Positions 2,992 to 21,312 of a stretch of 41,257 nucleotides of DNA are shown piece by piece. Source of the stretch: an uncultured Mageeibacillus sp. (GTDB lineage Bacteria; Bacillota; Clostridia; Saccharofermentanales; DTU023); NCBI GenBank assembly GCA_964493375.1, contig CAZBOM010000001.1:1-41257 (forward strand). Reading direction: 5' to 3'. How positions within the stretch are numbered: the stretch's first letter is position 1; each line of letters begins with the position of its first letter. Under the pieces are notes generated by a model. The model saw only the letters and a program-made list of their open reading frames with translations. It searched no databases and had not been told where the DNA came from. A program made the translations under genes and the position numbers.

Positions 2992-3141
2992 GATGCCTCC
3001 TAAGGAAATTTCCGCTGATCAAATCGATCAAGATGATAGGTGTCATCTTATCATATTTCGATGCTGAAAAATGCTTAATAAAGGCACTTTCACCAATTAT
3101 TTACATTCAACAATCGGCCGACATAGCAGGCTAAGCAAACT

Positions 3142-3174
3142 GAAAAGCGAGTCGCCTAAACGACTCGCTTTTTC
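3142..3174 (-). terminator. Rho-independent terminator (bidirectional in appearance) after the lipoprotein gene
   Basis: Perfect 9-bp stem agcgagtcg (3146-3154) / cgactcgct (3161-3169) with a 6-nt loop, flanked by an A-run and a T-run. Confidence 0.6.
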
Positions 3175-3195
3175 GCATCGCACTGCATGAACTTT

Positions 3196-3780
3196 TTAAG
3201 GGAGAAATTGTTCCGACGCGACATCGTATGCATATTTTAAGTCCCCATGGTCTCTCGAAAATAAGATAACTTTCTCAGGTTTTTTATTCGTGTTGTAGTG
3301 AAAGACGAACTTGTCTCGACTCATGTCCACTTTTTCCCAACCCATCATTTTGCCATCGACGACAATATCGGCAATAAAAGGTACGACAATCTTTCCATCC
3401 CGCATAGGTAGTATGCCCCCCATTCCCGCTCCTTCAATCGTAACCATGAGTTTCCCCGCTGCATCGAAGTTGATCGCGCCAACATTCACATGAGCTGTCC
3501 GATCCTCAAACTTTAATGTCACTTGTTTCCCGGATGGTTTCGGTTCATCGACGGAGCTTTTAATCGTTTCGGTCGGTCCGCTCGTCGTGCTGCTTATTTC
3601 CGAGGGTAATGTGTTGTTTGTCTTCGAAGGGGAAGTACCCTTTGTCGTTTGGTTGCTGTTTACCGGCTTTGTTTTTTCTTTTTCGATATCAAACGTTTTC
3701 TTCGCAACACATCCGGTGGAACACACCAACACGGCGATCATGGCAAATAGGCTAACTGTTATCAAAAGCGTTCTCTTCAT
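3196..3780 (-). CDS. Hypothetical lipoprotein
   Basis: 194-aa ORF. The N-terminus MKRTLLITVSLFAMIAVLVCSTGC is a signal peptide with a lipobox Cys, followed by an S/T/P/N-rich linker and a small domain. I recognise no family. Confidence 0.6.
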   Translation of the reverse strand: MKRTLLITVSLFAMIAVLVCSTGCVAKKTFDIEKEKTKPVNSNQTTKGTSPSKTNNTLPSEISSTTSGPTETIKSSVDEPKPSGKQVTLKFEDRTAHVNVGAINFDAAGKLMVTIEGAGMGGILPMRDGKIVVPFIADIVVDGKMMGWEKVDMSRDKFVFHYNTNKKPEKVILFSRDHGDLKYAYDVASEQFLP

Positions 3781-3801
3781 AATCTTTCCTACCTTTCCGT
3801 T

Positions 3802-5241
3802 TTAAAAAGTATTTTTATTCTCTTTTTCTGTGGCGACCGGATCGCCCGAAGTATTACCTGTTCGGAGTGTCAGCGTGTAGTCGTAGTTTTTATTCAGCTT
3901 AAAAATCTCACTTGTACCGCTCGATTTAAGGCGCTGATAGACACCCTCTTCTCCGAACATTTCGTTCTCGCCAAACCAATTCCCGAATCCAAAGGCTGAC
4001 TTAAAAATGTAACTTCCAGGCGGCAATTTAACTTTTACCGAATCACCCTTATTGATGAAGATCACTGAGACGAGCGTCGTGCCATCTTGATCGTAGATCT
4101 TGAAATACGTTGAACTGCCGTCATTTGCAGGCGGTTTAATGAGAAGCGAGCAACCGGACCCTTTATACGCGCTGTTGCGGAATAACTCACCGGTACTCGG
4201 TTTCGCCACGATGCAATTACCAGCCATATCCGCGGCATCTTTGAAGTTTCCAAGCGCTGTAAACTCTTTATAGGCATCGTACTTTTTACCGCTTTCAAAC
4301 ATGGTCTTCGCGGCTAAATAGAGCGGCATGTTCCGGCACTCATGGCGTAAATCCTCCACGTCGGGGAACTTCTCTTGGTCGAGATTGTTCAACGATTTAA
4401 GCGCCTCTTCGTAGTGACCATTCTCAATCAAAGAGATCGCTTTCTGGTAATCTTTATGATCGCGACAAAGCTTTACCATCTCACGCGCGTCTTTGTAATC
4501 TCCCGCCTTCACGAAAGATTCTTCAGCCTTCGCATAAAGACCTTTATCAAAATGCGCTTTCCCCTCGTTATAAGACATGATTGATTTCGCTTCGGCGGCT
4601 AGTTTATCAGAATCCTTAAACGAACTAATTTCTGCGAACAGACTGATCGCCTTTTGGTATTCCCCACTTTTCATCAGACGCTTGGCGTCGTCATATGTCA
4701 TGGTTTTCTTCGCGAAAGCCGCCATATTCTCGGAATCATCAAAAGCTCCGAGAGCCTCAAAGACTTCCTGAGCTCCTTTATAATCACCTTTTTCGAGCAA
4801 TGTCACGCCCTCGTTATACTTGTTCTGTTTCGCATTGTGTAAAAATACGGGAACAAGAATCGCCGCGGCGATGACAATGAGCGCCACACCGGCCATCACG
4901 AGATATTTTGTTTTGCGGCGTGGTTTTTTTGTCGCGTCATCGCGAGACGGTATCGGCTCGACGATTGGCGAAACAATCTCACCATAAGACATGGGCGCCA
5001 TAGGTTGATAAGCCACACCTTCATATTCAAATGCTTCTGTTTGTTGATGATTTCCTCCGTTATCTGAAAACAGCCTTGGCTCGACGGTAGGCGAAACAAC
5101 CTCATGGACTGTCATGGGCGCTACCGGCGGGGGCATCTCGACACCGTATTCAGGTGCATCAATTTCTTCACGTTTCTCACCGCAAAAAGGGCAAAACATG
5201 GTCCCTTCGAGCATCTCTTTTCCGCAATTGGCACAATACAT
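3802..5241 (-). CDS. Zinc-ribbon / single-TM / TPR-like repeat membrane protein
   Basis: The ORF track gives 3802..5364, but the likely start is Met42 (ATG at 5241), which is preceded by a GAGGG SD. The N-terminus MYCANCGKEMLEGTMFCPFCGEK is a CxxC...CxxC zinc ribbon. It is followed by a TM helix (YLVMAGVALIVIAAAILVPVFL), repeated G.Y..A...F..LG.FKDS helical repeats and a C-terminal beta-rich domain. Confidence 0.65.
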   Translation of the reverse strand: MYCANCGKEMLEGTMFCPFCGEKREEIDAPEYGVEMPPPVAPMTVHEVVSPTVEPRLFSDNGGNHQQTEAFEYEGVAYQPMAPMSYGEIVSPIVEPIPSRDDATKKPRRKTKYLVMAGVALIVIAAAILVPVFLHNAKQNKYNEGVTLLEKGDYKGAQEVFEALGAFDDSENMAAFAKKTMTYDDAKRLMKSGEYQKAISLFAEISSFKDSDKLAAEAKSIMSYNEGKAHFDKGLYAKAEESFVKAGDYKDAREMVKLCRDHKDYQKAISLIENGHYEEALKSLNNLDQEKFPDVEDLRHECRNMPLYLAAKTMFESGKKYDAYKEFTALGNFKDAADMAGNCIVAKPSTGELFRNSAYKGSGCSLLIKPPANDGSSTYFKIYDQDGTTLVSVIFINKGDSVKVKLPPGSYIFKSAFGFGNWFGENEMFGEEGVYQRLKSSGTSEIFKLNKNYDYTLTLRTGNTSGDPVATEKENKNTF

Positions 5242-5486
5242 GGGCGACCCTCGCTTTCTATCTGAAACACATCTATTTTCTGAACTCAAAAACTGGCTCC
5301 AGAAACTCTTCTGAAGCCAGTATAGTTTCAGGTTGAGACCGAGGTGTCTGCGCGATGCATACATCGCAGGCTTTTTTATCGATTGTTTATGTCAGTGAAA
5401 AACTTGAGTGAGAAGCGATGGTAAAACGAGCGCACGATCATCTGCTTGATTCAATGCTAGAGGGCTGTCATGAAATAAAACTGACG

Positions 5487-5534
5487 CCATGGCAAACTCA
5501 TGGGCGAACACCATGGCAAGCTCATGGGCGAACA
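5487..5534. repeat. Tandem direct repeat, 2 x 24 nt (ccatggcaaRctcatgggcgaaca), one mismatch
   Basis: Read directly: 5487-5510 and 5511-5534 are identical except for an a/g difference at unit position 10. The repeat is intergenic, between the pseudokinase stop (5570) and the zinc-ribbon gene start (5241). Confidence 0.9.
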
Positions 5535-5569
5535 TGATGAATCACATTTTATAGGATTAAACAAAACGG

Positions 5570-7138
5570 TTATGGCATAACTCGCTCATTATCGGAGCCA
5601 TCGATGCGAACACGCCAGAGGTGACCACCGTCCTCTTCGTTTTGATAGAAAATCCACCGCCCCACAATGTTAAACGGGCCTGTCTTCGTTGTGAGAATGG
5701 AATAGTGAACTCTCCCGTCCAGCGAAGTCCATTCAAGCGTCTTTCGATTGCCGGCGACATAAAAGATTCCCGCCGGCGTGACATTGATGTAATACGCCGG
5801 TTTGTTGGTGTATCTTTTGATATTGCCGCCATCTAAATCCATGCTGATCAGAAAACTCGCCGAATCATTGAGCACCTTTCGATCGGCATCTCGATTACTC
5901 GCGACATATGCGTAAATCCTGTTTTCGTAGATACAGAACCATTCACAACTATCACTGTTCAAGAGTTCCATGTTACTGCCATCCAGGTTACATCGGTACA
6001 AATTGTAGTCATTTTCCGGAGATGCGAAATACAGTTGTTTTCGCACAATATCGAGACAACCGTATGCCGTCATGCTATTGAGTTGTTTGACAGTCCCCGA
6101 TGGCGCGTGTACCTGGTAAAGATATCCGTGATCACGTGTCGTGTCGAGGAAGAATTCTCCGTCGATAATATAGAGCAATCCCGAGTGCGTATCGCAGAAT
6201 ATTTCGCTTTTCATCGATGTGGGGTCAATTCGATAAATTTTCTTATTCGATGCATAGTAAAGCCAACCGTCATAGTAGTTGAGAGCTTCCGCACCGGCGT
6301 TCTCAGCAAGCAGCTGAATCTCTCTCGAAAACGGATCCATGCGGTAGATGCTCCCGCGATCGATGAAAAAGATCTCGTGCTTGCTTCGTGCCGCGAAAGC
6401 ACCGCCTGCTGCCGTCAAATTGCCGGGGAGATTGCCCCTTTCCTGAGTGAAAGGCGTCTCAACCATACCGATTCCGCGCGCATCTTGAAATCCCACGTCA
6501 TAACCGGTCGCGTAACCTGATCTATATCCCGATTCTTTTTTTTCGATTTCTCCTTTATCCCTTCCTCTATAAAAGAAATGAATCGATAAACCGGTCGCGA
6601 TACTGAGAATGACGACTCCCAACAACCCGAATACGAGTTTCTTCGTATTTCTTCTCTTTCTCTTGATCAAAAGTGACAAGTCTCTTATATTTTGAACGCG
6701 TGCGCGCGGATCAAAAGCCGTACAGCACTCAATCACCTCGCGAAGCCTTTTATCCTCTACTTGCGTGTCTAGCTTCGTCTTATTCTCATACCCCGTCGCC
6801 ATGAAGAGCATCATCATGCCCAGTGAATACACAAGAGCGTCAGCTTTCTTCGTGTTCGCTCGGTCATACTCCGGAGGTGAATACAGCTCACTCTCATACA
6901 ATGGCACGCGTGTCCTTTTTAAAGAAATGGTTCCATCTTGTTTCATCATGACAAGCTGCGGATGTAAGATCGCGTCAAACGGTTCGCGAGCATCTTTGTT
7001 CGCATCTTCCACTATTTTGCAAATTTTTTGAACCGTGGAAAAAATGTCCTTTGGACGCATCACGCCTTCTTCGGTCACGATGTCAAAGATAGAACGCTCT
7101 TTTTTCCCATCCCATGAATAAGTCGATTTAGCGCTCAT
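5570..7138 (-). CDS. Truncated pseudokinase (C-lobe only) - TM - DUF5050-like beta-propeller protein
   Basis: The track ORF is 5570..7147 (GTG), but the ATG at 7138 has a strong AAGAGGTGA SD that overlaps the upstream gene's stop. Residues about 18-160 align with the C-lobe of the upstream kinase (LFMATG, C.AFDP..R), but HRDIKPQN is replaced by LHPQLVMM and DFG by SLK, and there is no N-lobe. A TM helix (LVFGLLGVVILSIATGL) follows, then repeats of the LYRCNLDGSNMELL / WRVRIDGSDNERV type. Confidence 0.75.
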   Translation of the reverse strand: MSAKSTYSWDGKKERSIFDIVTEEGVMRPKDIFSTVQKICKIVEDANKDAREPFDAILHPQLVMMKQDGTISLKRTRVPLYESELYSPPEYDRANTKKADALVYSLGMMMLFMATGYENKTKLDTQVEDKRLREVIECCTAFDPRARVQNIRDLSLLIKRKRRNTKKLVFGLLGVVILSIATGLSIHFFYRGRDKGEIEKKESGYRSGYATGYDVGFQDARGIGMVETPFTQERGNLPGNLTAAGGAFAARSKHEIFFIDRGSIYRMDPFSREIQLLAENAGAEALNYYDGWLYYASNKKIYRIDPTSMKSEIFCDTHSGLLYIIDGEFFLDTTRDHGYLYQVHAPSGTVKQLNSMTAYGCLDIVRKQLYFASPENDYNLYRCNLDGSNMELLNSDSCEWFCIYENRIYAYVASNRDADRKVLNDSASFLISMDLDGGNIKRYTNKPAYYINVTPAGIFYVAGNRKTLEWTSLDGRVHYSILTTKTGPFNIVGRWIFYQNEEDGGHLWRVRIDGSDNERVMP

Positions 7139-7143
7139 CACGA

Positions 7144-10100
7144 TCACCTCTTCTTTTGGAGTTGGTGGTCATTGGTGCCATCTAAACGAACACACCATAG
7201 ACGTCCGCCGTCATCATCATTGTGGTAAAAAATCCATTCGCCTGCGATATTAAAATCAATCGCACGACTTGACGTGATTTTGCTCCTATATTGACCGTCT
7301 AAAGAACACAGGTGAATCGTCTCCTCAAAGCGATCGATATAATAGATACCTCGACCCGTCACATTGATCATCGAAGCGCTCAATTCGGCGATAAAAGTCG
7401 TGTTACCTGTATTCGCGTCGACGCGAATCAACTCCTCATGGCCATTTTTTACCGTGGAGCAATAGATATCCCCTTCAAACAAGCAGACATTTTTGCACTC
7501 GCCATCGAGTAACCGCCTTACTTTGAAACTATTGATATCCATACTGTAGAGAGCGCTGTCTTTTCCGTATACAAATACGATTTTATCCTTGTCAACATTA
7601 ACCCATCGACAAGGGAAAAGGTCACTCCGCTTTTTAATACTGCCGTCGGCAATATCGAGAGAATAAAATCCATCCTCTCCGGCGATATAGTATTTCGAGT
7701 TCACAAGATGAAGTTTGCCCACCATGTCTTCGCGCAGAATATCGCGATCTAATGTATAGATGTTTGTTTGCATAATCTTTGAGCCGGAAGAATAGTAAAG
7801 CCACCCATTCATGTAGCTCAGCGCTTGCGCGTTTTGGCCGCGCACGATCACATCTCCCTCCGTCCCCTTTTCAGACATTTTGATGATGTCACCGTCGAGA
7901 ACATAAAAAACTGAATCGGCACCTTGCGCCGCAAAAGCGCCACCTTCAATCGCCATGTTACCGGGTCGATTGCCGCGCGTAGCATCTTCGTCCATATCGC
8001 CGATTTTGACAATGGGAGCATCTTCATACCCATCGACATATCCGATGTCAAAGCCGCTCTTATAACCTACTTGCACTCCTTTGTCTTTTCCCAGCTTGTT
8101 TCCAATACCGTAGGATAACAACGAAGGTAGCACCATCATGGTGACAAGACAGGCGGCGATCGCGATTCTTCGACTCGTTCTTCGGTGAGATTTCTCTCTC
8201 GTAATGAAATGGTCAATCACCTCGACGCTCTGGATGCGAGACTTCGGGTCAAAGGCGATGCATCGCTCAATCAAATTGCGCAATCGGTTATTCACGACTT
8301 TCGCCTCTAAATCTGATCGCGAAACATGCCCGGTTGCCATGAAAAGTATGACGACACCTAATGAATAGATATCGGTCAACGGTGACGTTTGCTCAAAACC
8401 GAATTGCTCCGGAGGCGCGTAGTCTAGCGTGAGCACGACCGATGTATCTTGCGTGCTCTCCTCTTTATGGACACGCGATATCCCGAAATCAATCAAGTGA
8501 ATACTTCCGTCATATCCCACAATGATATTCTGCGGTTTGATGTCGCGATGAATGACGGGAGGCGTTTGCGCGTGGAGATAACGGAGAATTTCCGTTATTT
8601 TAAGTACGACTCCAAAAATATCTTTTACACTTAGCACGCCTTTGGCTCTGACAATATCGTAGAGCGATCGCCCTGCGATGTATTCGCGGACAATATATTT
8701 CTTGCCGTCTTTTTCATAAGTTTCGAACACTTTTGGAATGCCGGGGTGGTCAAATGAACTTAAGATTTTCGCTTCTTCCAGAGCGTCTTCTTCGGGGTAA
8801 TCTTTTGTGACGCGGAGAATAGCCTTGATACCATCTTGCTTTCGTCTCAAAAGATAGATTTCTTTTTTGCCATTTTCGTCTTTTCGAATACAACTTTCAA
8901 AAGCGTAACGGTGAATCAACGCCTCCGGCATCCCTTCACAAGAGATCGTTTCATTAAGCGTTGCGTTATAAGCATTCAAGAAACTGTTGACATCACTGCC
9001 GAAATACTCGGGGTTTGATGAAGGGATAATTTTTGGCGATGACACTTGCATAGGCTCTCTCCCTTTCGCTCGACTCGGAGCCAAGCTTATTATGCGTTGC
9101 GAACTATTGATTGGCGCTAACTGAACTATTGTCCTCGGACGGATGCCACTGAACAGCTGAGGCGTCAGCAACACAGGGGCAAGAACTGTTCCAAACAGAA
9201 TGTAACAGTAGATGATGATGGTGACGGGGGCAATTCCTTTCCTTGTGATTAAGAAGAGACCTCGGTCTATACAAAGAACGGCGATCAATAGGAAACCTTT
9301 GTTTTTGCGCACAAATTCCGCAATCAATCGTAAGCCTTCCGTAAATCGCCCGTCGAGCTCATCGACACTCGTCGAAGGGAACGATTTCATGTTGAGTTTT
9401 ATTTTGTTGGCTAAATAACGACATGCTCCCGCGAGCATGGAGAACGCGTGACCGACAAAGGAGATGGCGACAATAACGGTGTGTGGAAATTTTTCTATCT
9501 TATCCTCAGGGAATCGGCTGCGCATCACAAATCCGCGTATACAAGGAAGAATCACAAAAAAGACATTACAGGTAATAAACCCCGCCCACAAGAGATGTAT
9601 ATTCCCAAAATAGCATTCGAGCAATACAGTCGGGATGAGCATGATCTCATTGATGATCGAGAAAAAATACAAGAACATATAAAACGCGTCGCATTTTCGT
9701 GTTCTCCCGAGAACAATCGTGCCGTCAAAAATCATCTCAAACAACCCATACGAATATCGATGTTGTTTCCCCGTTTCCTCGGCAAATGTTCGGCTCACAT
9801 ATTCGGTAAACTCGAGACCGTTTAGCTGAGCGTATTTCCCGTGATACCCCATATTGTAAAAACCGATCGCTTTATCAAAATCCTCGGAGACTTTGTTTTC
9901 GGACCAAAGCCCGCTTTTTTCCAAAATACTCTTTCTGATAAAAGCGTTATGTCCCACCAGAGGGACAAAGAACCCTTGGAGCGCTTTACATGGCCAAATA
10001 TTGTGAAAGAGATTGTTCGTCTGGTGTCCTGTCGCATAAGAAAAATAATTGTCCGACATATTAATCGCGACGGTCGCGCATTGTATATAGGCGAGTTTGT

Positions 10101-10974
10101 CATCGGATGCGAATTCGGGGACGACCGCCTCAATTATCTTCTCTTTGACGCCGGAATCTTTGTCCAGCAAAAGAATTATTTCTCGAGTCTCAATATCGCC
10201 TTCGGCATACCCTCCTTCGAACGTGCCGCCCGCGCGCGTCAAATCACCGAGAGCATTCCCCTGGACTGTCGCATTGCCAAGTCGAATCGTGTAATTAAGA
10301 TTGGAAGCTTTCTTGAAAAGACCTGCACGCCCTTGAGCCGGTCTCACAACAAAAGCGACACCTGATCGCCTGTAAAATGCGATGCGCTCAGCCGCTTTCA
10401 TTTCTTTCTCAGAAAGTTGATTTGAATTACTCGAGAATCGATGCATCAGATCATCCGCGATATCACGTGAGCAGATACCACCCAATAACGGTGCGAGACC
10501 ATCATCGGACACGATGATGTTGGCCGATAGACCGCTGTATTGTTGATAGCGTTTCGCGGCCGCGATACTACCGCGAATCGTCTCAAAGATGACGGCATTC
10601 TCTTCAGTGTATACGGGGATACTGATGGTGACAGGAAAATACGAGGAACGCTCAACCTCACTTCTCGCGACATTCATATAATGCTTTCTATTAATTCGCG
10701 TAACCCCTGAGAGAATATCGCAGACGGAAGGTCGCAAAGACCAGAGAACATCAGCCAAATAATAAAACGGATAAATAAAAAAAATAAAAGATACTAGCAA
10801 TCGAAATAAGCTCTGGATCGACATGCCATACAGAAAAAACAATCCTACATGGATGAAGGCATTAAGTGCGAGCGAAGCAACATATGGCCATACGCCGCAA
10901 ATACCGTTCCCGAGTGTCTCCGGTATTCTCTTCGCCCGTCTCGTTCGGTTTTTCTTCACCCTGATCATCGCCAT
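7144..10974 (-). CDS. Multidomain membrane protein: cellulose-synthase-like family-2 glycosyltransferase + Hanks-type Ser/Thr protein kinase + extracytoplasmic DUF5050-like beta-propeller
   Basis: 1276-aa ORF. GT2 motifs are DDG (157-159), KKASNLN (221-227), DKD (271-273), SED (363-365) and QHRYS (404-408), followed by a multi-TM bundle (about 425-605). The kinase carries HRDIKPQN (809-816), DFG (829-831) and APPE (853-856). A TM helix spans about 936-955, and propeller-type repeats run to residue 1270. Confidence 0.8.
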   Translation of the reverse strand: MAMIRVKKNRTRRAKRIPETLGNGICGVWPYVASLALNAFIHVGLFFLYGMSIQSLFRLLVSFIFFIYPFYYLADVLWSLRPSVCDILSGVTRINRKHYMNVARSEVERSSYFPVTISIPVYTEENAVIFETIRGSIAAAKRYQQYSGLSANIIVSDDGLAPLLGGICSRDIADDLMHRFSSNSNQLSEKEMKAAERIAFYRRSGVAFVVRPAQGRAGLFKKASNLNYTIRLGNATVQGNALGDLTRAGGTFEGGYAEGDIETREIILLLDKDSGVKEKIIEAVVPEFASDDKLAYIQCATVAINMSDNYFSYATGHQTNNLFHNIWPCKALQGFFVPLVGHNAFIRKSILEKSGLWSENKVSEDFDKAIGFYNMGYHGKYAQLNGLEFTEYVSRTFAEETGKQHRYSYGLFEMIFDGTIVLGRTRKCDAFYMFLYFFSIINEIMLIPTVLLECYFGNIHLLWAGFITCNVFFVILPCIRGFVMRSRFPEDKIEKFPHTVIVAISFVGHAFSMLAGACRYLANKIKLNMKSFPSTSVDELDGRFTEGLRLIAEFVRKNKGFLLIAVLCIDRGLFLITRKGIAPVTIIIYCYILFGTVLAPVLLTPQLFSGIRPRTIVQLAPINSSQRIISLAPSRAKGREPMQVSSPKIIPSSNPEYFGSDVNSFLNAYNATLNETISCEGMPEALIHRYAFESCIRKDENGKKEIYLLRRKQDGIKAILRVTKDYPEEDALEEAKILSSFDHPGIPKVFETYEKDGKKYIVREYIAGRSLYDIVRAKGVLSVKDIFGVVLKITEILRYLHAQTPPVIHRDIKPQNIIVGYDGSIHLIDFGISRVHKEESTQDTSVVLTLDYAPPEQFGFEQTSPLTDIYSLGVVILFMATGHVSRSDLEAKVVNNRLRNLIERCIAFDPKSRIQSVEVIDHFITREKSHRRTSRRIAIAACLVTMMVLPSLLSYGIGNKLGKDKGVQVGYKSGFDIGYVDGYEDAPIVKIGDMDEDATRGNRPGNMAIEGGAFAAQGADSVFYVLDGDIIKMSEKGTEGDVIVRGQNAQALSYMNGWLYYSSGSKIMQTNIYTLDRDILREDMVGKLHLVNSKYYIAGEDGFYSLDIADGSIKKRSDLFPCRWVNVDKDKIVFVYGKDSALYSMDINSFKVRRLLDGECKNVCLFEGDIYCSTVKNGHEELIRVDANTGNTTFIAELSASMINVTGRGIYYIDRFEETIHLCSLDGQYRSKITSSRAIDFNIAGEWIFYHNDDDGGRLWCVRLDGTNDHQLQKKR

Positions 10975-10981
10975 CTATCCA

Positions 10982-12256
10982 TTATTTTCCAAATGGATTT
11001 GCCTTCATTTGCGCGAGCGCATACCAACTCGTCGCACTGATACTCTGTTGATTGTGATACTCCCAAAGGACTTTTGAACCACTCACATAAAAGCCTGTTG
11101 AGACACCGTCTCTATCGGCGGCGGGGATGCTCCCATCACGCGCTTCCTGAGTTTTCAAATAGAGGATTTTCGAATCGTATTTTTCCGATTCGCCAAGCTC
11201 ACTGTAACAAAGAGCCATTTGGGCTGTTCCTTCATTCCATATGCCATCTAAGTCTCCGGCACTAAAATCAAATCCGGCCCCTATAGACATCCTGTCTTCG
11301 ACAAACGAAATAATTTTATGCGCGTTGAAAAGTTCCTCGCGAAGCGCCAGAATAGCCAGCGAATTGGAGTCTAAGGGAATAACGCCTTTACTGATTGTCT
11401 TTCCATCTTTCTCAGTGCCGGTATAAAAGCAATGAAATTTGTCATCATACATGGAGAGGACGAAAGACTTCGCGTGGTCGGATGCCTCGAAATAGACGGC
11501 CGCTTTTGTCGGATCACTTTCTTTAATCGCGCCGGCCATCACGTTGAATGCTCGGATCAGGTCAATGTTGTGCTCTGTTGATTTGTAATCAACTTTTATC
11601 TGGTCGTTATCCCATCCTTCATAGCCGGCCGTAAAACCTCCCGTTGACGATTTTAATGTCAAAACAAAATCGGCCGCTCGGACGGCTGCATCAAGATACT
11701 CCGTTTTCTTGTCTACCGATGCATTTTCGGCAGCCTTACAAAGAGCCAATATGGACCACGCCATATTACCTGTCGACGTCGAAACGGTGTAATAATCCTC
11801 CTGCCAACGACCTGATTGCCAAAAACCGGGAAGCCTTATCGTCACTTTCCCACCTGTGATGGAGCGTCCCGAATCGCTTCGTGGATCACCGCTCGTGTAG
11901 GCATTCCGAAATCGCCCGTCTTTGAACAACCGGTCGTGATCTTGGGCAAACACGAGCACATCGGCCAATTTTTGTACGTGCCATACGGCTCCCGCTTCTG
12001 ATAACGCGATCAAGGCCATAGCATTGTCATATATATATGCATGGTCCGAAGGACCGCCCTTACTTTCATCAACGCTCGCAATAAAACCGCCGCTCTCTTC
12101 CACACAACCGGCGAGAAATCCGGCGGCAGAAGATACATTTCTTATGTCATTTGCCGCCGGTTTAATCTCTTCACTACCACGGCATCCCGTGATTGTTAAT
12201 AAAAAAATAAAGATCAAGGATAGCGCGATCCTTCTCTGTCTCGCTGTATTTTTCAT
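10982..12256 (-). CDS. Secreted lipoprotein with predicted (alpha/alpha)6-toroid fold (glycoside-hydrolase-like or terpenoid-cyclase-like)
   Basis: The track ORF starts at a TTG (12268), whereas the ATG at 12256 follows a GGAGG SD. The signal peptide plus lipobox reads MKNTARQRRIALSLIFIFLLTITGC. Hairpin-helix signatures recur: YDNAMALIAL, GNMAWSILAL, EHNIDLIRAF, DSNSLAILAL, NEGTAQMALCY, SATSWYALAQ. Only 7 nt separate it from the synthase-kinase gene. Confidence 0.6.
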   Translation of the reverse strand: MKNTARQRRIALSLIFIFLLTITGCRGSEEIKPAANDIRNVSSAAGFLAGCVEESGGFIASVDESKGGPSDHAYIYDNAMALIALSEAGAVWHVQKLADVLVFAQDHDRLFKDGRFRNAYTSGDPRSDSGRSITGGKVTIRLPGFWQSGRWQEDYYTVSTSTGNMAWSILALCKAAENASVDKKTEYLDAAVRAADFVLTLKSSTGGFTAGYEGWDNDQIKVDYKSTEHNIDLIRAFNVMAGAIKESDPTKAAVYFEASDHAKSFVLSMYDDKFHCFYTGTEKDGKTISKGVIPLDSNSLAILALREELFNAHKIISFVEDRMSIGAGFDFSAGDLDGIWNEGTAQMALCYSELGESEKYDSKILYLKTQEARDGSIPAADRDGVSTGFYVSGSKVLWEYHNQQSISATSWYALAQMKANPFGK

Positions 12257-12299
12257 ACAGACCTCCAAGTGCTCAGCAGAAATGACTCGTCGTCTTTAA

Positions 12300-12352
12300 T
12301 TAATAAAATTATAGGTGTGGGGATGATCATTCCTGTATGCGCATGGCATACA
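12300..12352 (-). promoter_or_regulatory. Candidate promoter/operator of the envelope cluster: -10 TATAAT (12308-12313, minus strand) with a perfect 7-bp inverted repeat TGTATGC-N5-GCATACA (12334-12352) over the -35 region
   Basis: Read directly from the sequence. The -35 hexamer itself is poor. The function is inferred. Confidence 0.3.
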
Positions 12353-12363
12353 AAAGGCTTCAA

Positions 12364-12822
12364 TCAGTCGTTCTCCGTCCCGTCGTCCAAGGGCGCTAAT
12401 TGCAACGTTCGCATAAACTCATAAGTATCAATGATGTCATAGCCGTGGTTAATCGCGAAAATGATCGCGGCATCTCGTTTGATGAGAGGATGTAAAGCCC
12501 CGGAATGTGTGACGGCCAACATGCGTTGCGTTGTCTTCAAATCGAGAGACATGGCGATCGCAATTAAAAGATAATAATCTCTTTTCCCCAGCCTTCGCCC
12601 CTCCATAATCTGATAACCATACGTGCGCGACAAATTAGCTTTGCGAATGACTTCGCTTTTCTTTTGTCCTGTCTGCGTGAGCAGGTCATCAAAAAAAGCC
12701 CGGATATCATCATCCAGAAAAGCGTCCCAATGTTGTGGGAAAGAGTCGCCTTTCAGTTGTTCTTGCATGAGTTTTGTGTCTAAAGGATTTTTCGGACGAC
12801 TTTGATCGTTCATCTGACTCAT
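12364..12822 (-). CDS. Small helix-turn-helix (XRE-like) protein
   Basis: 152-aa ORF. The central segment KKSEVIRKANLSRTYGYQIMEGRRLGKRDYYLLIAIAMSL looks like an HTH followed by helices. The family assignment is from memory only. Confidence 0.5.
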   Translation of the reverse strand: MSQMNDQSRPKNPLDTKLMQEQLKGDSFPQHWDAFLDDDIRAFFDDLLTQTGQKKSEVIRKANLSRTYGYQIMEGRRLGKRDYYLLIAIAMSLDLKTTQRMLAVTHSGALHPLIKRDAAIIFAINHGYDIIDTYEFMRTLQLAPLDDGTEND

Positions 12823-12920
12823 GCTCCTCTTCTACAGTATATTTTTACATTATCATATTTATCAGAATTAGTTGTTATATGTTCCCTTTAAAAAATCACC
12901 TCGAGGAATCTATGAATGGA

Positions 12921-15900
12921 TCAATTGACCCATGAAGCAACGCTGCCCTCGGAATCAATTCGCACTTGTAGTTGTTGGTTGATCGCTTGTTTCAGCATGG
13001 GGACGTGAGAGATCACGCCAATCAAACGGTTGTCAACGGAGAGGTCTTGCAAGACATGGATGGCGTCTTGAAGCGATTCCTCGTCGAGACCACCAAAGCC
13101 TTCATCGATAAAAAGCGCGTCGATCTCCACACCACCCGCATGTTCAGACACGACATCAGAGAGACCAAGCGCCATCGAAAGCGCCGCTTGGAATTTCTCA
13201 CCGCCGGATAGCGTCGAGACGGGGCGCGTCTTCGCTGTCCAGAGATCTTCTACGGAAAGATCAAGCCCCGTTCTTGATCGTCCATCTTTACCTTTCTCAG
13301 ATCGAATGAGCTCATAGCGGCCGTTTGTCATTCTCGCGAACCGTTGGTTGGCACGATTGATCACCTGTGTAAAATACCACGTCTGAATAAAGACCTCGAA
13401 ACTAATTTTATCGGCCTCTTTGTGGTTACCTGTCGCGAGATCGGCTATATCTGACAGCATTTTTTCTTCTTCTAGAGCTTCCAATGTTTTCTTATGCATC
13501 GATTTGATACTCTCGAGAATATCTTGATATTTAGCAACGCGTCCCGATTGCTCAAGATGAGCTTCTTTCAATGCAGATAGTTGCTTTTGCAACGCATCAA
13601 CGACCGCCACTTCCTCGGCTTCATCTCGCTTTGACAGTCCTTTTATCTCACGGCTCAGGCGATCGAGATCGCGGACGTTCGCATCTCGCTTGCTTTTCTC
13701 CTCGTCGACCTTCTGTTCCAAATCAATGCGCTCATCATCTTTGAGGCGCTTCTCTCGATAATCATTCTCCGAGACAAACAAACCTTTCTCCAGCGCTTCG
13801 TAAAACTCATTTTCTTTCGCGAGATAATGCTTCTTTGCCGAATCACAGGCTAATTGAATGCTCTTTAGCGTCGCTTCGGCGGCTGTTAACGTTTCACGGG
13901 CTTGTCTCTCATTTTCTGTCGCCTGCTTGTATTCTCGCTCAAGGAGATCCTGACGTTCTTTTTTCTGGTCGAGAGATGTTTTAACTGTTCCGAGCGATGC
14001 ACCCGACACGCGTTTTGTTAAAGCTGAAATCTCTCCTTCCAGCTTCGTCGCCCTCAATTTCCCTTCTTGGATCTCTCGGCTCTTTAACGCGATTTTCTCT
14101 GTGAGATTTCGCATAGCTTCGCTTGTCTCTGTTATGTCGCGCTTAAGTTCTTCTCGGCGATCAGATTGAGCCTGTAAAGCCTTTTGCTTTTGATCGGCAT
14201 CCGATTGTTCTGATGTCAAGAATTCGTTCAACTGCTGCAAGCTGTCTTGCAACTCAACTATTTTTTGGGTCATGAATTCGAGCGCGCCACCGGTTAATTC
14301 CGAGTCATGTGTCGCTTCAATTTCTTCTTGTCGATTGAGACAAGGAAGTTTATCGGTCAGAGCGTCAGCTTGAAATGAGACGCGATCAAGCGTTGATCGT
14401 GTCTTCGAGATATCTCTTTCGAGAGCCGAACTGGCCTCATCCGCGATTTGGCGTTTCGCTTGCGCTTCCTTTTCGAGACGCTCGACTGCCGCTTCATCAA
14501 GGGAATCTTCCGACAAGGTCGCTTTATGCGGGTGCTCTTTCGAGCCGCACACAGGACACGGTTCCCCCTCGACTAACTGAAGAGCCAAATAGCCGGCTCG
14601 TTCTCGAAACAGAAGATCGGAAGCTTCGTGCGCTTCTTCAGCCGTTTCTCGCCACGCCTGTCGCTTCTCTTCGCACTGCTCGCGTTGTTTTAAAAGCCCT
14701 TCTACATCTTTTTTGAGGTTGTCGGCGTCTTGGCGCAGTGAAGATACTTTCAAGTGATCAGCCCGCACATCATCGGCATGCGCTTTTGCCATCGTCAAGT
14801 CATGAGCGACGTCTGCCAAAGAATCGAGTTCATCCTGCTTTTCCTGCAGCGCATCGCTGAGCTCAGAACGCGTGGTGAGAAATTGCTCATGCGAATTCTC
14901 AGCTTCTTCAACAACCTTGTTCTGAGTCTCAGCCGCTTGTTGCAGAGGAGCTAAACTTTCCAAGATCTTGAGTTCATCCTCAAGTTTGCTTATCTCTAGA
15001 GGAAGCTCTCCCCGTTCGCGATCGTATTCTTTCGCTTTAGCCAATTGAGAGGCAGCCTTGTCCAAATCGACAGCGGCATCATGCCTGTTTTCTTCCGCTT
15101 GCTGAAGGTTTTCTTTCGTTTCTTTTAAGGTGCTTCTCGCTCCTTCTAAAGCATTCCAGGATGGATCGACGAGGCGTGTCGCGCGGTCGTCATCTTCGAG
15201 ACGTTTTTTCATCTGTTCAAACGCTCGCTCCGTTGCTTTCAACTGATCGCGTTCTTCGACCGCTTTGTCAAACTCGAGAAGTTTCTCATTGTCTTTACGC
15301 AACTGTTCGAGTGATATTTGAGCTCTCCCCAGGCGACGGTCGGCCGCTTCTTCCTCTCGACGAACAATATTGAGAGAGCTCACCATCTCGGCATCAATAC
15401 GATCGAGATCAGTGATACACTCGGCGACACTCCAGAACGAGCGCAACGAGACAATCTCTGCAAATCTCAGTCTAGCTTCTGTCTCTTCTTCGGGAAGCAC
15501 AATACTCCCAAGCTGGTGAAACAGCATACCTTCAAGCATCGAGCGGTTCGACTTCGCGTTCTTATATTTCTCGGAGATTAGAAGCTGCATTTTCTCATAG
15601 AGACTTGTATTAAAAAGCTTCCTAAAGATCGCCGATCGATCGTTGCTGGACGTTCCGATAAGCTCATAAAACTCGCCTTGCGCAATCATCGCGACTTGCC
15701 GAAACTGCGTCTTATCAAGCCCCAACAACTCCGGGATGGTATCGTCAACCGTTTTGATTTTTGTCAACACGCGACCGTCAGGAAAGGTGAGCTCAACTTC
15801 CGCCGCGCACTCTGTCAATCCTTTGCCACGCATTTTGGGTCGCTCATATGCCGGACTTCGTCTGATCGTGTAAGTTTCACCTCGGAGAACAAATTCAAAC

Positions 15901-19181: not shown

Positions 19182-19221
19182 AATGATGTAAAACACAAAA
19201 TTGATCATTGGACGACAACAT

Positions 19222-21312
19222 ATGAAACGAACTAATTATTGCGGACTTTTTTCAGAGCAGGACGTCGGGAAACAGACGACAGCCTGCGGTTGGGTTGAGA
19301 CGAAACGCGATATGGGCGGCGTGATCTTCATTGATCTCGTCGACCGCGAAGGCGTACTTCAGATCGTCTTCAATCCGGCGTATACAGATCCTGAAGCATT
19401 TGCTCTCGCCGAGCGCGTCAGAAATCAATCAACACTTTTGGTTGAAGGGACGATGTTCCTCCGCGATGAGGAGACGGTCAACCCGAAGATCGCGACGGGA
19501 ACGGTTGAATTGCGTGTGACGCGAGCCGATCTACTTTCCACTTGTGGCGATCTCCCCTTTAACCCCGCCGAAGCGGACGATGTGAGAGAGGACTTGCGCC
19601 TGCGTTATCGTTATCTCGATTTGAGACGCAAGCGTCTGCGCGATAATATCCGCTTTCGTCATCGCGTCACATCGGCCATTCGTCGATTCATGGATGGCGA
19701 AGGGTTTGTCGATATCGAGACACCGATTCTGACGAAGAGCACCCCGGAAGGCGCGCGCGACTATCTCGTTCCGAGCCGTGTCCACCCCGGTTCTTTCTAC
19801 GCTCTGCCGCAGTCTCCGCAAATATTCAAACAACTTCTGATGGTGTCGGGATTCGATCGCTATTACCAGATCGCGCGTTGCTTCCGCGACGAAGATCTTC
19901 GAGCCGACCGACAACCTGAATTCACACAGCTCGACTTGGAAATGTCTTTCATCGAGATGGAAGATATTCTCTCAACACTCGAGAACTTATTCCGATCTGT
20001 TATGGCGGAAGTAAAAGGCATCGAATTTGATGAACCTTTCCCGCGCTTCACTTGGGCTGAGGCGATGGATCTCTACGGCAGTGACAAACCTGATCTGCGC
20101 TTTGACCTGCCTATCGTCGATATCACCGATATTGCGGCGACATCGGGATTCTCTGTGTTTACTAAAGTAGTCGAAGCCGGCGGTGTCGTTCGCGCCATCA
20201 ACGTGCCGGGACAATCCGACTTCACACGCGCCACCATTAATGAACTGACGGATTTCGCGATTTCCGAAGGTGCCGGCGGCATGGCGTGGATCGCTTGGCG
20301 TCCATCGGGTGAAATCTACTCCATTTTGACAAAATTCGTCGATGAGAAAAACATGCTTGCACTGCTTGAGCGCGTCGGTGCCAAGCCGGGCGATTTCGTT
20401 TTATTCTCAGCCGATAAACTCGATGTCGTCCGCCGCGTCTCCGGTGCGCTTCGACTCCGACTCGGTGAGATGCTGGGACTTCGCGATCCGAACAAATTCG
20501 CCTTCGCAATCGTCACTGAATTCCCCATGTTCGAATTCAATGAAGAAGAAGGACGATATACGGCGCAACACCACCCATTCACCATGCCGTTCGAGGAAGA
20601 TCTCGATTATCTCGTTTCCGATCCGCCGCGCGTTCGATCACAAGCTTATGATTTCGTTTTGAACGGAACAGAGCTCGGATCAGGTAGCATTCGTATACAC
20701 CGCGGCGACATCCAACGACGCGTTTTCCAAGCGTTGGGACTCGGCGAGAAAGATATTGAGGAACGCTTTGGCTTCATGATCAACGCGTTTGCTTATGGCG
20801 CGCCACCGCACGGCGGGTTTGCGTTCGGACTTGACAGACTCGTCATGATTCTCGCGGGCGAGCAATCACTCCGCGATGTCATCGCATTCCCGAAAATACG
20901 CGATGCCTCTTGCCCGATGACGGAAGCGCCGACACCTGTCGCCGATGACCAGCTTGAAGCGCTCGGCATCCGCCTCGTCGATTCCGTGCGATCGGAGATG
21001 GGACGTCCCGTCAGCCGGGAAGAAAAACGGCGGACGGAACTCGATATCAAACGATTAACCGGTGATTCCCGCCTCATTTTATCCGCGGAAGAAGAAGACG
21101 GTATGCGCGACAGCTTGCTCGAACTGATTTCTTTTGCCGATGCGCTCCACGAGATTGATACAGAGGGAGTTGACCCTACCTTCACTTCTTCTGAAGCACA
21201 TGATGTCTGGCTCACACCGCGCGATGATCGCGCGTTATCGGCAGAGGACGCGCTCGCCAACGCGCCGGACTCTCGAGAGCCGTTCTTTTTCGTGCCGCCC
21301 GTCGTTGAGTGA
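19222..21312 (+). CDS. aspS: Aspartate--tRNA ligase (bacterial type with GAD insertion) fused in frame to a C-terminal GatC domain
   Basis: The track ORF starts at a TTG (19201), but the canonical AspRS N-terminus MKRTNYCG begins at the ATG at 19222. Class II motifs are present (FRDEDLRADRQPEFTQLD, GSGSIRIH, GLDRLVM). The protein is about 110 aa longer than a typical bacterial AspRS, and the tail aligns with GatC (see next feature). Confidence 0.9.
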   Translation: MKRTNYCGLFSEQDVGKQTTACGWVETKRDMGGVIFIDLVDREGVLQIVFNPAYTDPEAFALAERVRNQSTLLVEGTMFLRDEETVNPKIATGTVELRVTRADLLSTCGDLPFNPAEADDVREDLRLRYRYLDLRRKRLRDNIRFRHRVTSAIRRFMDGEGFVDIETPILTKSTPEGARDYLVPSRVHPGSFYALPQSPQIFKQLLMVSGFDRYYQIARCFRDEDLRADRQPEFTQLDLEMSFIEMEDILSTLENLFRSVMAEVKGIEFDEPFPRFTWAEAMDLYGSDKPDLRFDLPIVDITDIAATSGFSVFTKVVEAGGVVRAINVPGQSDFTRATINELTDFAISEGAGGMAWIAWRPSGEIYSILTKFVDEKNMLALLERVGAKPGDFVLFSADKLDVVRRVSGALRLRLGEMLGLRDPNKFAFAIVTEFPMFEFNEEEGRYTAQHHPFTMPFEEDLDYLVSDPPRVRSQAYDFVLNGTELGSGSIRIHRGDIQRRVFQALGLGEKDIEERFGFMINAFAYGAPPHGGFAFGLDRLVMILAGEQSLRDVIAFPKIRDASCPMTEAPTPVADDQLEALGIRLVDSVRSEMGRPVSREEKRRTELDIKRLTGDSRLILSAEEEDGMRDSLLELISFADALHEIDTEGVDPTFTSSEAHDVWLTPRDDRALSAEDALANAPDSREPFFFVPPVVE
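21037..21309 (+). other. gatC: GatC-homologous domain forming the C-terminus of the AspRS polypeptide
   Basis: ELDIKRLTGDSRLILSAEEEDGMRDSLLELISFADALHEIDTEGVDPTF...SAEDALANAPDSREPFFFVPPVVE aligns along its full length with B. subtilis GatC (recalled sequence ...[41 protein letters not shown]...[20 protein letters not shown]). There is no stop codon between the AspRS core and this domain. Confidence 0.8.

Follow-up and report, generated by a model that had tools for sequence, protein, structure and literature searches.

A conserved cassette encoding a glycosyltransferase-kinase fusion, a glycosidase-like lipoprotein and a putative dedicated regulator in an uncultured Mageeibacillus and other anaerobes

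We analysed a 41,257-nucleotide (nt) stretch of DNA from an uncultured Mageeibacillus sp. (assembly GCA_964493375.1, contig CAZBOM010000001.1, positions 1 to 41,257; hereafter the window), in which six consecutive minus-strand genes make up a candidate signal-responsive glycan locus. Gene calls were based on a list of open reading frames (ORFs), Pfam and NCBIfam scans, and hydropathy analysis of the window proteins. In the order of transcription, the genes encode a protein of 152 amino acids (aa) without a transmembrane helix, which we call U (12364..12822); a lipoprotein with an ITGC lipobox and a toroid fold (10982..12256; 424 aa counted from the likely ATG at 12256 within an ORF spanning 10982-12268); a 1276-aa fusion protein with Glyco_trans_2_3, Pkinase and DUF5050 domains in Pfam (7144-10974); a 525-aa pseudokinase paralog of the fusion that also carries a Pfam DUF5050 domain (5570..7147); a 479-aa protein with a cytoplasmic zinc ribbon (Pfam Zn_Ribbon_1), a transmembrane helix by hydropathy, TPR matches in Pfam and a beta-rich domain at its C-terminus (3802..5241); and a 194-aa small lipoprotein with the lipobox STGC (3196..3780), for which neither Pfam nor NCBIfam gave a match. 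Seven nucleotides separate the toroid and fusion genes, the stop of the fusion gene and the start of the pseudokinase gene share 4 nt, a 328-nt gap precedes the TPR gene, and 21 nt lie between the last two genes. A preliminary description of this DNA had read the five genes from the toroid to the small lipoprotein as one exopolysaccharide unit. All five ORFs lie where it put them, as do the 328-nt gap with its tandem repeat, the 7-nt and 21-nt spacers and the closing terminator, and the domains it named in the fusion, the 525-aa protein and the 479-aa protein were recovered. Its labels "toroid" and "pseudokinase" likewise stand, given the structural model and catalytic residues described below. 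The boundaries of the unit were misplaced, as the most conserved partner, U, lies one gene beyond its range.

An alignment of fusion homologs, run against a single genome for each species, yielded 59 loci, and a cross-check using tblastn with the window proteins together with independent ORF clustering gave the same picture. The full-length fusion, that is, a kinase-bearing GT2 protein, is present in about 36 genome loci. U (70-80% identity) and the toroid lipoprotein (57-68% identity) are encoded directly upstream of it in 35 of 36, and the pseudokinase-propeller paralog directly downstream in 34 of 36, the other two loci ending too early past the fusion gene. Linkage of the TPR gene is looser: full-length homologs with 28-41% identity occur in about 20 of the 36 loci, at +5.5 to +14 kb downstream and once upstream on the opposite strand, with unrelated small membrane and zinc-ribbon proteins intervening. 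The small lipoprotein has one weak homolog (26%, in locus L015) and is not conserved with the module. This neighbourhood comparison, which the preliminary description had put forward as its own check, upholds the toroid and pseudokinase partnerships and a real, conserved and apparently undescribed cluster; together with the loose linkage of the TPR and lipoprotein genes, it defines the unit as four genes shifted one gene upstream (U, toroid lipoprotein, GT2-kinase-DUF5050 fusion and pseudokinase-DUF5050 paralog) instead of the five listed. Carriers are mostly Clostridia, joined by Erysipelotrichaceae, Atopobiaceae/Coriobacteriales and one metagenome-assembled genome (MAG) labelled Fusobacterium, and are anaerobes of the gut, rumen, mouth and digesters. 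Three loci come from records titled as named strains and not as MAGs (L002, COT073; L003, oral taxon 113 str. W5053; L043, OH1046). Collectively, we judge it probable, with a modest degree of confidence, that the locus forms a self-contained module, expressed as two transcripts, which perceives a signal, controls itself and produces a glycan.

The GT2 domain occupies residues 1-610 of the fusion (9145..10974, minus strand; Pfam Glyco_trans_2_3, E 4e-23). Its invariant motifs, D158 (SDDG), D271-K-D273 (LLLDKDS), E364-D365 (VSED) and Q404..R406-Y407, follow the D, DxD, (T)ED, Q(R/Q)xRW pattern of processive GT2 enzymes, except that the last motif ends in Y and not in W. When a profile of the domain was compared with solved structures, it aligned with BcsA (E 3e-6 to 1e-4) and with the plant CslF6 (0.014), and the BcsA alignment spans the catalytic region and runs into the first C-terminal helices; a single-sequence PDB search with the GT2 part alone gave no match, so that BcsA was reached by profile only. 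Hydropathy indicates two N-terminal and about four or five C-terminal hydrophobic helices, a predicted arrangement that is BcsA-like. Should one of five C-terminal segments correspond to the interface helix of BcsA, the kinase that follows would be cytoplasmic.

Within the toroid lipoprotein the lipobox cysteine, Cys25, is invariant. Its structural model (predicted local distance difference test score, pLDDT, 83; predicted template-modelling score, pTM, 0.85) is an (α/α)6 barrel with the twelve-helix toroid fold, and Foldseek returned 191 PDB matches at E<=0.001, all of the (α/α)6 class and glycosidase-like. Many glycosidases and epimerases matched about equally well (E 2e-7 to 3e-5, template-modelling scores 0.5-0.6, 10-16% identity), scattered over GH15-like, GH8, GH76, GH78 and GH94 enzymes and AGE epimerases. 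Sequence searches of Pfam, NCBIfam and the PDB gave no match and place the protein neither in GH8, the BcsZ-type family, nor in any other named GH family. The wider family is large (1505 representatives, about 1500 at 50% identity) and is found mostly as a domain of large secreted multidomain proteins with Ig, Fn3, CBM-like and sorting domains, company typical of carbohydrate-active enzymes; it may constitute a new glycoside hydrolase family.

The toroid gene stands immediately upstream of a GT2 gene in 46 loci. It keeps this position in 11 loci whose GT2 protein (615-657 aa) lacks the kinase; U occurs in none of these and was absent from all kinase-less toroid-GT2 loci examined. At one kinase-less locus, L037, a histidine kinase and a response regulator come next. 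In Butyrivibrio the GT2 core, with 42-43% identity over the synthase part, is fused to GGDEF/EAL domains instead of the kinase (P0097-P0103), and the next gene, which overlaps it at the 3' end, codes for a toroid homolog (31% identity, E 3e-40). The toroid and GT2 proteins are thus the older two-gene core and a functional pair, and because this same core occurs with a kinase, with GGDEF/EAL or with an adjacent histidine kinase, the C-terminal module is an exchangeable regulator: the C-terminal extension of GT2 is a regulatory slot that holds either a Hanks kinase or cyclic di-GMP (c-di-GMP) enzymes. The earlier characterisation of the module as signal-gated gains support from the relatives with a GGDEF/EAL fusion beside a toroid homolog or with a histidine kinase and response regulator. 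The module is built around a GT2 synthase of BcsA type to which a signalling domain is fused, with a glycosidase-like protein as its extracytoplasmic partner; an exopolysaccharide is its presumed product.

Closer inspection of the GT2 relatives provided leads on the polymer. In Butyrivibrio sp. LB2008 (L180, 4121-11414), the gene for a 627-aa membrane protein of the Sulfatase family, to which LtaS, OpgB and BcsG belong, overlaps the GT2-GGDEF/EAL gene upstream, and the 698-aa protein encoded downstream combines the toroid homolog with a GDPD match; these neighbours suggest phospho-modification of the polymer. In L044 (2197-9840) and L047, from Bacilli- and Muribaculaceae-labelled MAGs, the GT2 core occurs in an 879-aa form, without kinase or toroid, and is preceded by a protein of about 2545-2547 aa, which in L044 bears GH94 catalytic, GH94 supersandwich and glucoamylase (PF10091) domains like those of cyclic beta-1,2-glucan synthases, and this neighbour may hint at the polymer class. 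The leads are therefore a beta-glucan-type or a phospho-modified product, and they bear on whether the same cassette might make a cell-associated glycan instead of a free exopolysaccharide. Such a glycan would be a membrane-anchored or wall-linked beta-glucan, akin to osmoregulated glucans or lipoteichoic-acid-type polymers, with the propeller kinase acting as an envelope-stress sensor like the PASTA kinases. Both neighbourhoods favour this view, as does the fact that Hanks kinases with extracellular sensors (PknB, PrkC, StkP) commonly monitor the cell wall. On the other side, no anchoring enzyme is encoded in the window, and released and anchored polymers are not separable from these data. 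We consider a cell-associated product the less probable outcome, with perhaps a minority share of our expectation, and the strongest competitor to the module reading given above.

The Hanks-type kinase domain of the fusion (residues about 686-935; 8170..8919, minus strand; Pkinase E 1e-36) has StkP and PknB as its best solved relatives. H809-R810-D811, K813, N816, D829-F-G and A853..P855-E856 are invariant in 19 sequences, so the full HRDxKxxN/DFG/APE set is present. The N-lobe (window 8812-8919, residues 686-721) is atypical in that it has no GxGxxG Gly-rich loop, and the beta3 residue 721, an Arg in the window protein, is Arg in 14 of 19 members and Lys in the remaining 5 of 19; K698 and K704, in the beta1-beta2 region, are invariant. 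The C-terminus that follows (residues 937-1276; 7147..8166, minus strand) consists of one transmembrane helix, a GY-rich juxtamembrane stretch and an extracytoplasmic DUF5050 beta-propeller (Pfam E 4e-22), whose nearest solved chain, 3s25, is a 7-bladed propeller-like protein; Pfam identifies no PASTA repeats in the extracellular part, DUF5050 being there instead. The pseudokinase paralog corresponds to this C-terminal half, with a kinase C-lobe remnant, one transmembrane helix, the GY-rich stretch and a DUF5050 propeller, and its catalytic residues are lost (IHP for HRD, no DFG, PPE kept). The Gly-Tyr-rich stretch, (G/S)Y..GY..GY..G(F/Y).DAP, lies between transmembrane helix and propeller in both the fusion (7990-8050) and the pseudokinase (6490-6550).

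Arg in place of the beta3 lysine of canonical kinases usually abolishes activity, and this substitution, together with the missing Gly-rich loop, makes the activity of the kinase uncertain. A WNK-like relocation of the catalytic lysine to K698 or K704 is conceivable. If the fused kinase were instead catalytically dead, U would be controlled otherwise and the kinase and pseudokinase halves would have a structural role in the synthase complex, as the N-lobe features and the obvious pseudokinase nature of the partner protein would allow. Invariance of HRD, K813, N816, DFG and APE over 19 diverse members would be unusual for a dead enzyme, however, and U accompanies kinase-bearing versions only, with a distant U homolog (below) also pairing with a stand-alone kinase. 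We therefore regard a dead kinase as unlikely, and favour a module in which the kinase relays the signal.

U is the most conserved gene of the cassette. Its family is tight, with 312 clusters, all unnamed and without Pfam annotation. The protein is cytoplasmic and all-helical, and hydropathy gives no transmembrane segment. Weak helix-turn-helix (HTH) matches were obtained among 26 U relatives (HTH_31 in 3 and HTH_73 in 5, best E 0.003), and the window U itself has no Pfam HTH match. Its structural model has too low a confidence (pLDDT 54) for a fold to be assigned from it, and nearly all of its fold matches, at E>1, are XRE regulators. The sole match of the U profile against the PDB, a serpin, was judged spurious. 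Faint but consistent, the hints point to U as a probable XRE-like helix-turn-helix regulator.

Alignment of the U-toroid intergenic regions revealed a 19-bp palindrome, TGTATGC-N5-GCAKACA, which we term the U-box. In the window, the noncoding stretch 12257-12352 carries U-box 1 (12334..12352, minus strand), a perfect palindrome (TGTATGCcatgcGCATACA) 11 nt past the U stop, and 20 nt after it a TATAAT hexamer (12308..12313, minus strand) marks the predicted promoter of the toroid, fusion and pseudokinase genes. U-box 2 (5345..5363, minus strand; TGTATGCatcgcGCAGACA) lies 104 nt upstream of the zinc-ribbon/TPR start codon and is likewise followed after 20 nt by a -10 hexamer, TATACT (5319..5324, minus strand), the predicted promoter of the last two genes. 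Two sites were thus observed in the window against 0.01 expected. Across the neighbourhood set we found 73 sites in the 38 loci with U (833 kb) and 0 in the 22 loci without it (380 kb). Nearly all (71/73) are on the gene strand, and in 63 of the 73 a TAnnnT hexamer starts exactly 20 nt past the palindrome, with a conserved purine about 7 nt later. By position, 22 U-boxes lie between the U and toroid genes, 28 just after the pseudokinase stop (within 400 nt of it, ahead of whichever gene follows), 17 further downstream, in front of other genes, and 4 elsewhere. The fixed 20-nt spacing puts the centre of the palindrome near -42 in a promoter without a -35 element, and a palindrome centred near -42 has the geometry of a class II activator site. 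Palindromic operators that sit at promoters, keep a fixed distance to the -10 hexamer and co-occur strictly with U are as expected for an XRE regulator, and U is predicted to bind them. The U gene itself has a tentative sigma-70-type promoter candidate (12836..12878, minus strand), formed by two overlapping consensus matches and free of a U-box; a U-box precedes the U gene in 3 loci only.

Further U-boxes extend beyond the core in several genomes. In digester MAGs (L004, 15459-24127; similarly L005, L007, L008 and L013), two more U-box promoters follow the pseudokinase gene, one ahead of genes for a zinc-ribbon multi-transmembrane protein and for another Hanks kinase, whose extracellular part has LRR repeats, the other ahead of genes for a WG-repeat protein and a TPR-protein homolog. 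Loci labelled Actinomycetes, Atopobiaceae and Coriobacteriales (L009, L041, L043) contain 4-6 near-perfect U-boxes per 25-kb locus, most of which precede small downstream genes, some with DUF805, zinc-ribbon or lipoprotein products; the numbers suggest a larger local regulated gene set in Actinomycetota.

Inside the 328-nt gap, an intrinsic terminator candidate (5292..5321, minus strand) combines a 13-bp stem, a 4-nt loop and UUUUU (folding free energy, dG, -20.4 kcal/mol; z -4.6), and 0 of 200 shuffles were as stable. Its left arm overlaps the -10 hexamer of the second promoter, so a transcript from that promoter would lack the hairpin, which would form only on read-through from the pseudokinase gene. 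A closing intrinsic terminator (3143..3172, minus strand; dG -21.1, z -5.5) ends the second transcript. The tandem repeat in the gap (24 nt x 2, 5487..5534; Tandem Repeats Finder score 89) has no unusual fold (z -1.6) and lies outside the conserved motif set, and Rfam returned nothing relevant for the whole window at gathering scores or for the gap at E<=1, so that no known riboswitch or leader explains the gap. The preliminary description had seen no clear terminator or promoter here and had left the membership of the last two genes uncertain. In fact the gap holds both the strong terminator and, at 5319-5363, a U-box/-10 promoter, and the TPR and lipoprotein genes therefore form a separate transcript under the same promoter motif. 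It is this shared motif, and not co-transcription, that ties the TPR gene to the core; elsewhere, TPR homologs sit in same-strand gene strings opened by a U-box.

This arrangement bears directly on the version first proposed, in which one complete five-gene operon has the fused kinase as its only regulator. The genes do share one strand and, apart from the 328-nt gap, short spacers, and TPR-protein homologs are often close by. The terminator and separate promoter in the gap, the unconserved lipoprotein, the variable distance of the TPR gene and the position of the best-conserved partner, U, outside the five all speak against it, and we consider it improbable. More improbable still is that the palindrome is not a DNA site but an RNA hairpin by which the transcripts of the U and pseudokinase genes are terminated, processed or stabilised at their 3' ends. 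The palindrome does lie just past two stop codons, and the perfect copy would fold at -10.5 kcal/mol; however, the central arm pair is unpaired in 32 of the 73 U-boxes with no compensating change, indicating selection on the DNA site and not on an RNA stem. No U-run follows the palindrome, its distance to the -10 hexamer and downstream purine is fixed, the second copy in the window does not fold as a palindrome, and many copies precede genes far beyond the pseudokinase gene. A kinase-based anti-phage defence system, raised by matches of the kinase domain to PADLOC kinase models (mad6, PD-T4-6), was rejected as scarcely credible, given that those matches are limited to the generic kinase domain, that no other module protein hits a defence model and that the module is built like an envelope glycan system.

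A metagenome scan for the U-box palindrome with its -10 hexamer yielded 120 loci, 14 of which are further copies of the module. In about 23 of the 120, the gene for a distant homolog of U (27-29% identity; hhalign probability 97.6%, E 3e-12) is oriented divergently to that for a stand-alone Hanks kinase of the membrane (362-381 aa), and a U-box lies about 60 nt upstream of a DUF6591 lipoprotein gene. Two human gut metagenome contigs (L063, 10599-12810; L075, 10513-12707) illustrate this pared-down relative of the signalling part: a distant U homolog of 140 aa, a Hanks kinase without an extracellular domain, and a perfect U-box and -10 hexamer ahead of a small acidic DUF6591 lipoprotein gene. 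As a possibility that we rate just short of an even chance, we put forward that a Hanks-type membrane kinase, a small U-family DNA-binding protein and a U-box promoter (TGTATGC-N5-GCAKACA, followed after 20 nt by TAnnnT) make up a dedicated signalling pair that has so far gone unrecognised in anaerobic Bacillota and Coriobacteriia. The pair would parallel a two-component system while working by Ser/Thr phosphorylation, and in the module it would have been fused onto a polysaccharide synthase, placing sensing, transcriptional feedback and polymer synthesis on one mobile cassette.

These observations can be assembled into a working model of the self-contained module. The GT2 domain would, like BcsA, be a processive synthase, building a (probably beta-linked) glycan and passing it through the membrane, and the toroid lipoprotein would be an extracytoplasmic glycosidase-like enzyme that trims or releases the polymer, by analogy with BcsZ, PslG and AlgL. 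The extracellular DUF5050 propellers of fusion and pseudokinase paralog would together form a sensor for a ligand, and the cytoplasmic kinase domain would relay the signal to U, most simply via phosphorylation, and may also act on the attached synthase. A U dimer on the U-box, centred near -42 at promoters without a -35 element, would serve as an activator. Active U would then switch on the synthase operon in a feedback loop, giving more synthase, toroid and sensor, as well as a variable set of envelope proteins, here the TPR protein, which may be the scaffold usual in synthase-dependent systems, and the small lipoprotein.

Several points weigh against this model. The polymer, the kinase activity, the phosphorylation and the binding of U to the U-box are all inferred. 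The relation to BcsA is distant (E about 1e-6), so the product and processivity of GT2 are predictions, and the toroid, with no glycoside hydrolase family to which it can be assigned, could be a binding protein, a lyase or an epimerase. The kinase N-lobe, with Arg721 and no Gly-rich loop, may mean that the domain signals as a scaffold. The identification of U as an HTH protein is weak (no Pfam hit, pLDDT 54, fold matches at E>1), and U and the U-box could go together in part because the cassette is inherited as a single block. Among the metagenome loci, the triad with the distant U appears to stem from about two lineages that were repeatedly sampled, and about 83 of the 120 motif loci showed no module gene; these last may match by chance, lie on short contigs or belong to the gene set as distant members.

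The remainder of the 41-kb window is housekeeping in content (SbcCD, patatin, AspRS-GatCAB, peptidases, ABC transporters), and domain scans found no polysaccharide genes outside the six. As stated in the preliminary description for the cluster, no Wzx/Wzy, priming transferase or c-di-GMP domain was found by domain scans, here across the whole window, and the same scans gave no PilZ, GGDEF I-site or other c-di-GMP receptor in any cluster or window protein. Elsewhere in the window, a single 703-aa ORF (19201-21312, plus strand) encodes a class II aspartyl-tRNA synthetase (tRNA-synt_2, GAD and anticodon OB domains) with a C-terminal GatC (residues 627-698); GatA and GatB follow directly, and the ORF looks like a natural AspRS-GatC fusion. 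A 415-aa ORF (31416-32663, plus strand) has no Pfam match at E<=1e-5. The G+C content of the module region (3001-13000) is 0.435-0.483, compared with 0.50-0.55 in some housekeeping flanks (1-3 kb, 19-25 kb), which fits the patchy cross-phylum distribution of the cassette and possible horizontal transfer.

Comparison with characterised systems delimits what is new. The cellulose system BcsA/BcsB/BcsZ/BcsC and, by analogy, the Pel, alginate and poly-N-acetylglucosamine (PNAG) systems share with the module a multi-transmembrane GT2 with D, DxD, ED and QxxRW-type motifs, and TPR domains, found in BcsC, PelB, AlgK and PgaA, have their counterpart in the TPR protein of the regulated gene set. Like the fusion, BcsA carries a regulatory domain at its cytoplasmic C-terminus (PilZ there, the kinase here), and BcsZ, a glycan-cleaving GH8 enzyme, is a co-encoded extracytoplasmic (α/α)6-type partner as the toroid is, in the latter case at the level of fold only. 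Unlike BcsA, the fusion has no PilZ or other c-di-GMP receptor, its place being taken by a Hanks kinase, a transmembrane helix and a propeller; unlike the Bcs system as a whole, the module is distant in sequence (E about 1e-6), its toroid falls in no GH family, and it has neither a BcsB-like partner nor an outer-membrane porin. The Butyrivibrio GT2-GGDEF/EAL proteins (P0097-P0103) share the GT2 core and an adjoining toroid homolog, and differ in having a c-di-GMP turnover module at the C-terminus, no U, U-box or pseudokinase, a Sulfatase-family protein upstream and a GDPD match in the toroid protein itself.

On the signalling side, the receptor Hanks kinases PknB, PrkC and StkP (with PASTA) and PknD (with a beta-propeller) have the same succession of cytoplasmic kinase, one transmembrane helix and extracellular sensor, and in PknD the sensor is also a propeller. 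None of these is one chain with a glycan synthase, however, and the fusion differs further in its DUF5050 sensor, which is not PASTA or NHL, in having no Gly-rich loop and mostly Arg at the beta3 lysine, and in its truncated pseudokinase partner. The logic proposed here, from membrane kinase to dedicated transcription factor to envelope glycan genes, resembles that of PknH-EmbR-embCAB in Mycobacterium tuberculosis, where a Hanks kinase phosphorylates a transcription factor controlling envelope glycosyltransferases; EmbR, in contrast to the small, probably XRE-like U, is a SARP/FHA protein, and PknH is not fused to a transferase. Controller (C) proteins of restriction-modification systems, such as C.Esp1396I, and other small XRE regulators are small helical proteins like U and were its top, non-significant fold matches. 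The operators of these regulators are palindromes that overlap the -35 region, and their binding can activate transcription. At about twice the length of C proteins, U has conserved N- and C-terminal extensions and falls below Pfam HTH thresholds, and its operator sequence is different and its context unrelated. Within the literature library searched, no paper dealt with DUF5050 kinases, with kinase-glycosyltransferase fusions in exopolysaccharide systems or with the U-box motif; four papers mention DUF5050, none of them relevant, and the matches to the operator half-sites were coincidental. As a general type, synthase-dependent glycan systems that include a glycosidase and a TPR protein are already known. 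The novelty lies in a Hanks kinase, fused to the synthase, as the controlling element, in a pseudokinase as co-receptor, and in a dedicated regulator that has an operator of its own. For the toroid and U, two of the four core proteins, the family is described neither in Pfam or NCBIfam nor in the literature.

Of all parts of the module, the set of kinase, U and operator is the likeliest to matter more generally. To our knowledge, known synthase-dependent polysaccharide systems are nearly all under c-di-GMP control, and a receptor kinase in the place of the c-di-GMP regulator on a synthase would represent a second route to the post-translational gating of polymer synthesis. Dedicated sets of kinase, transcription factor and operator are poorly defined for bacterial Hanks kinases; the cassette offers a candidate, with an operator clear enough to predict the regulated genes from sequence alone. 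If in culture, the three named strains (L002, L003 and L043) would allow the hypothesis to be tested directly. A signal-induced surface glycan in anaerobes of the gut, rumen, mouth and digesters would bear on their aggregation and on their interaction with the host.

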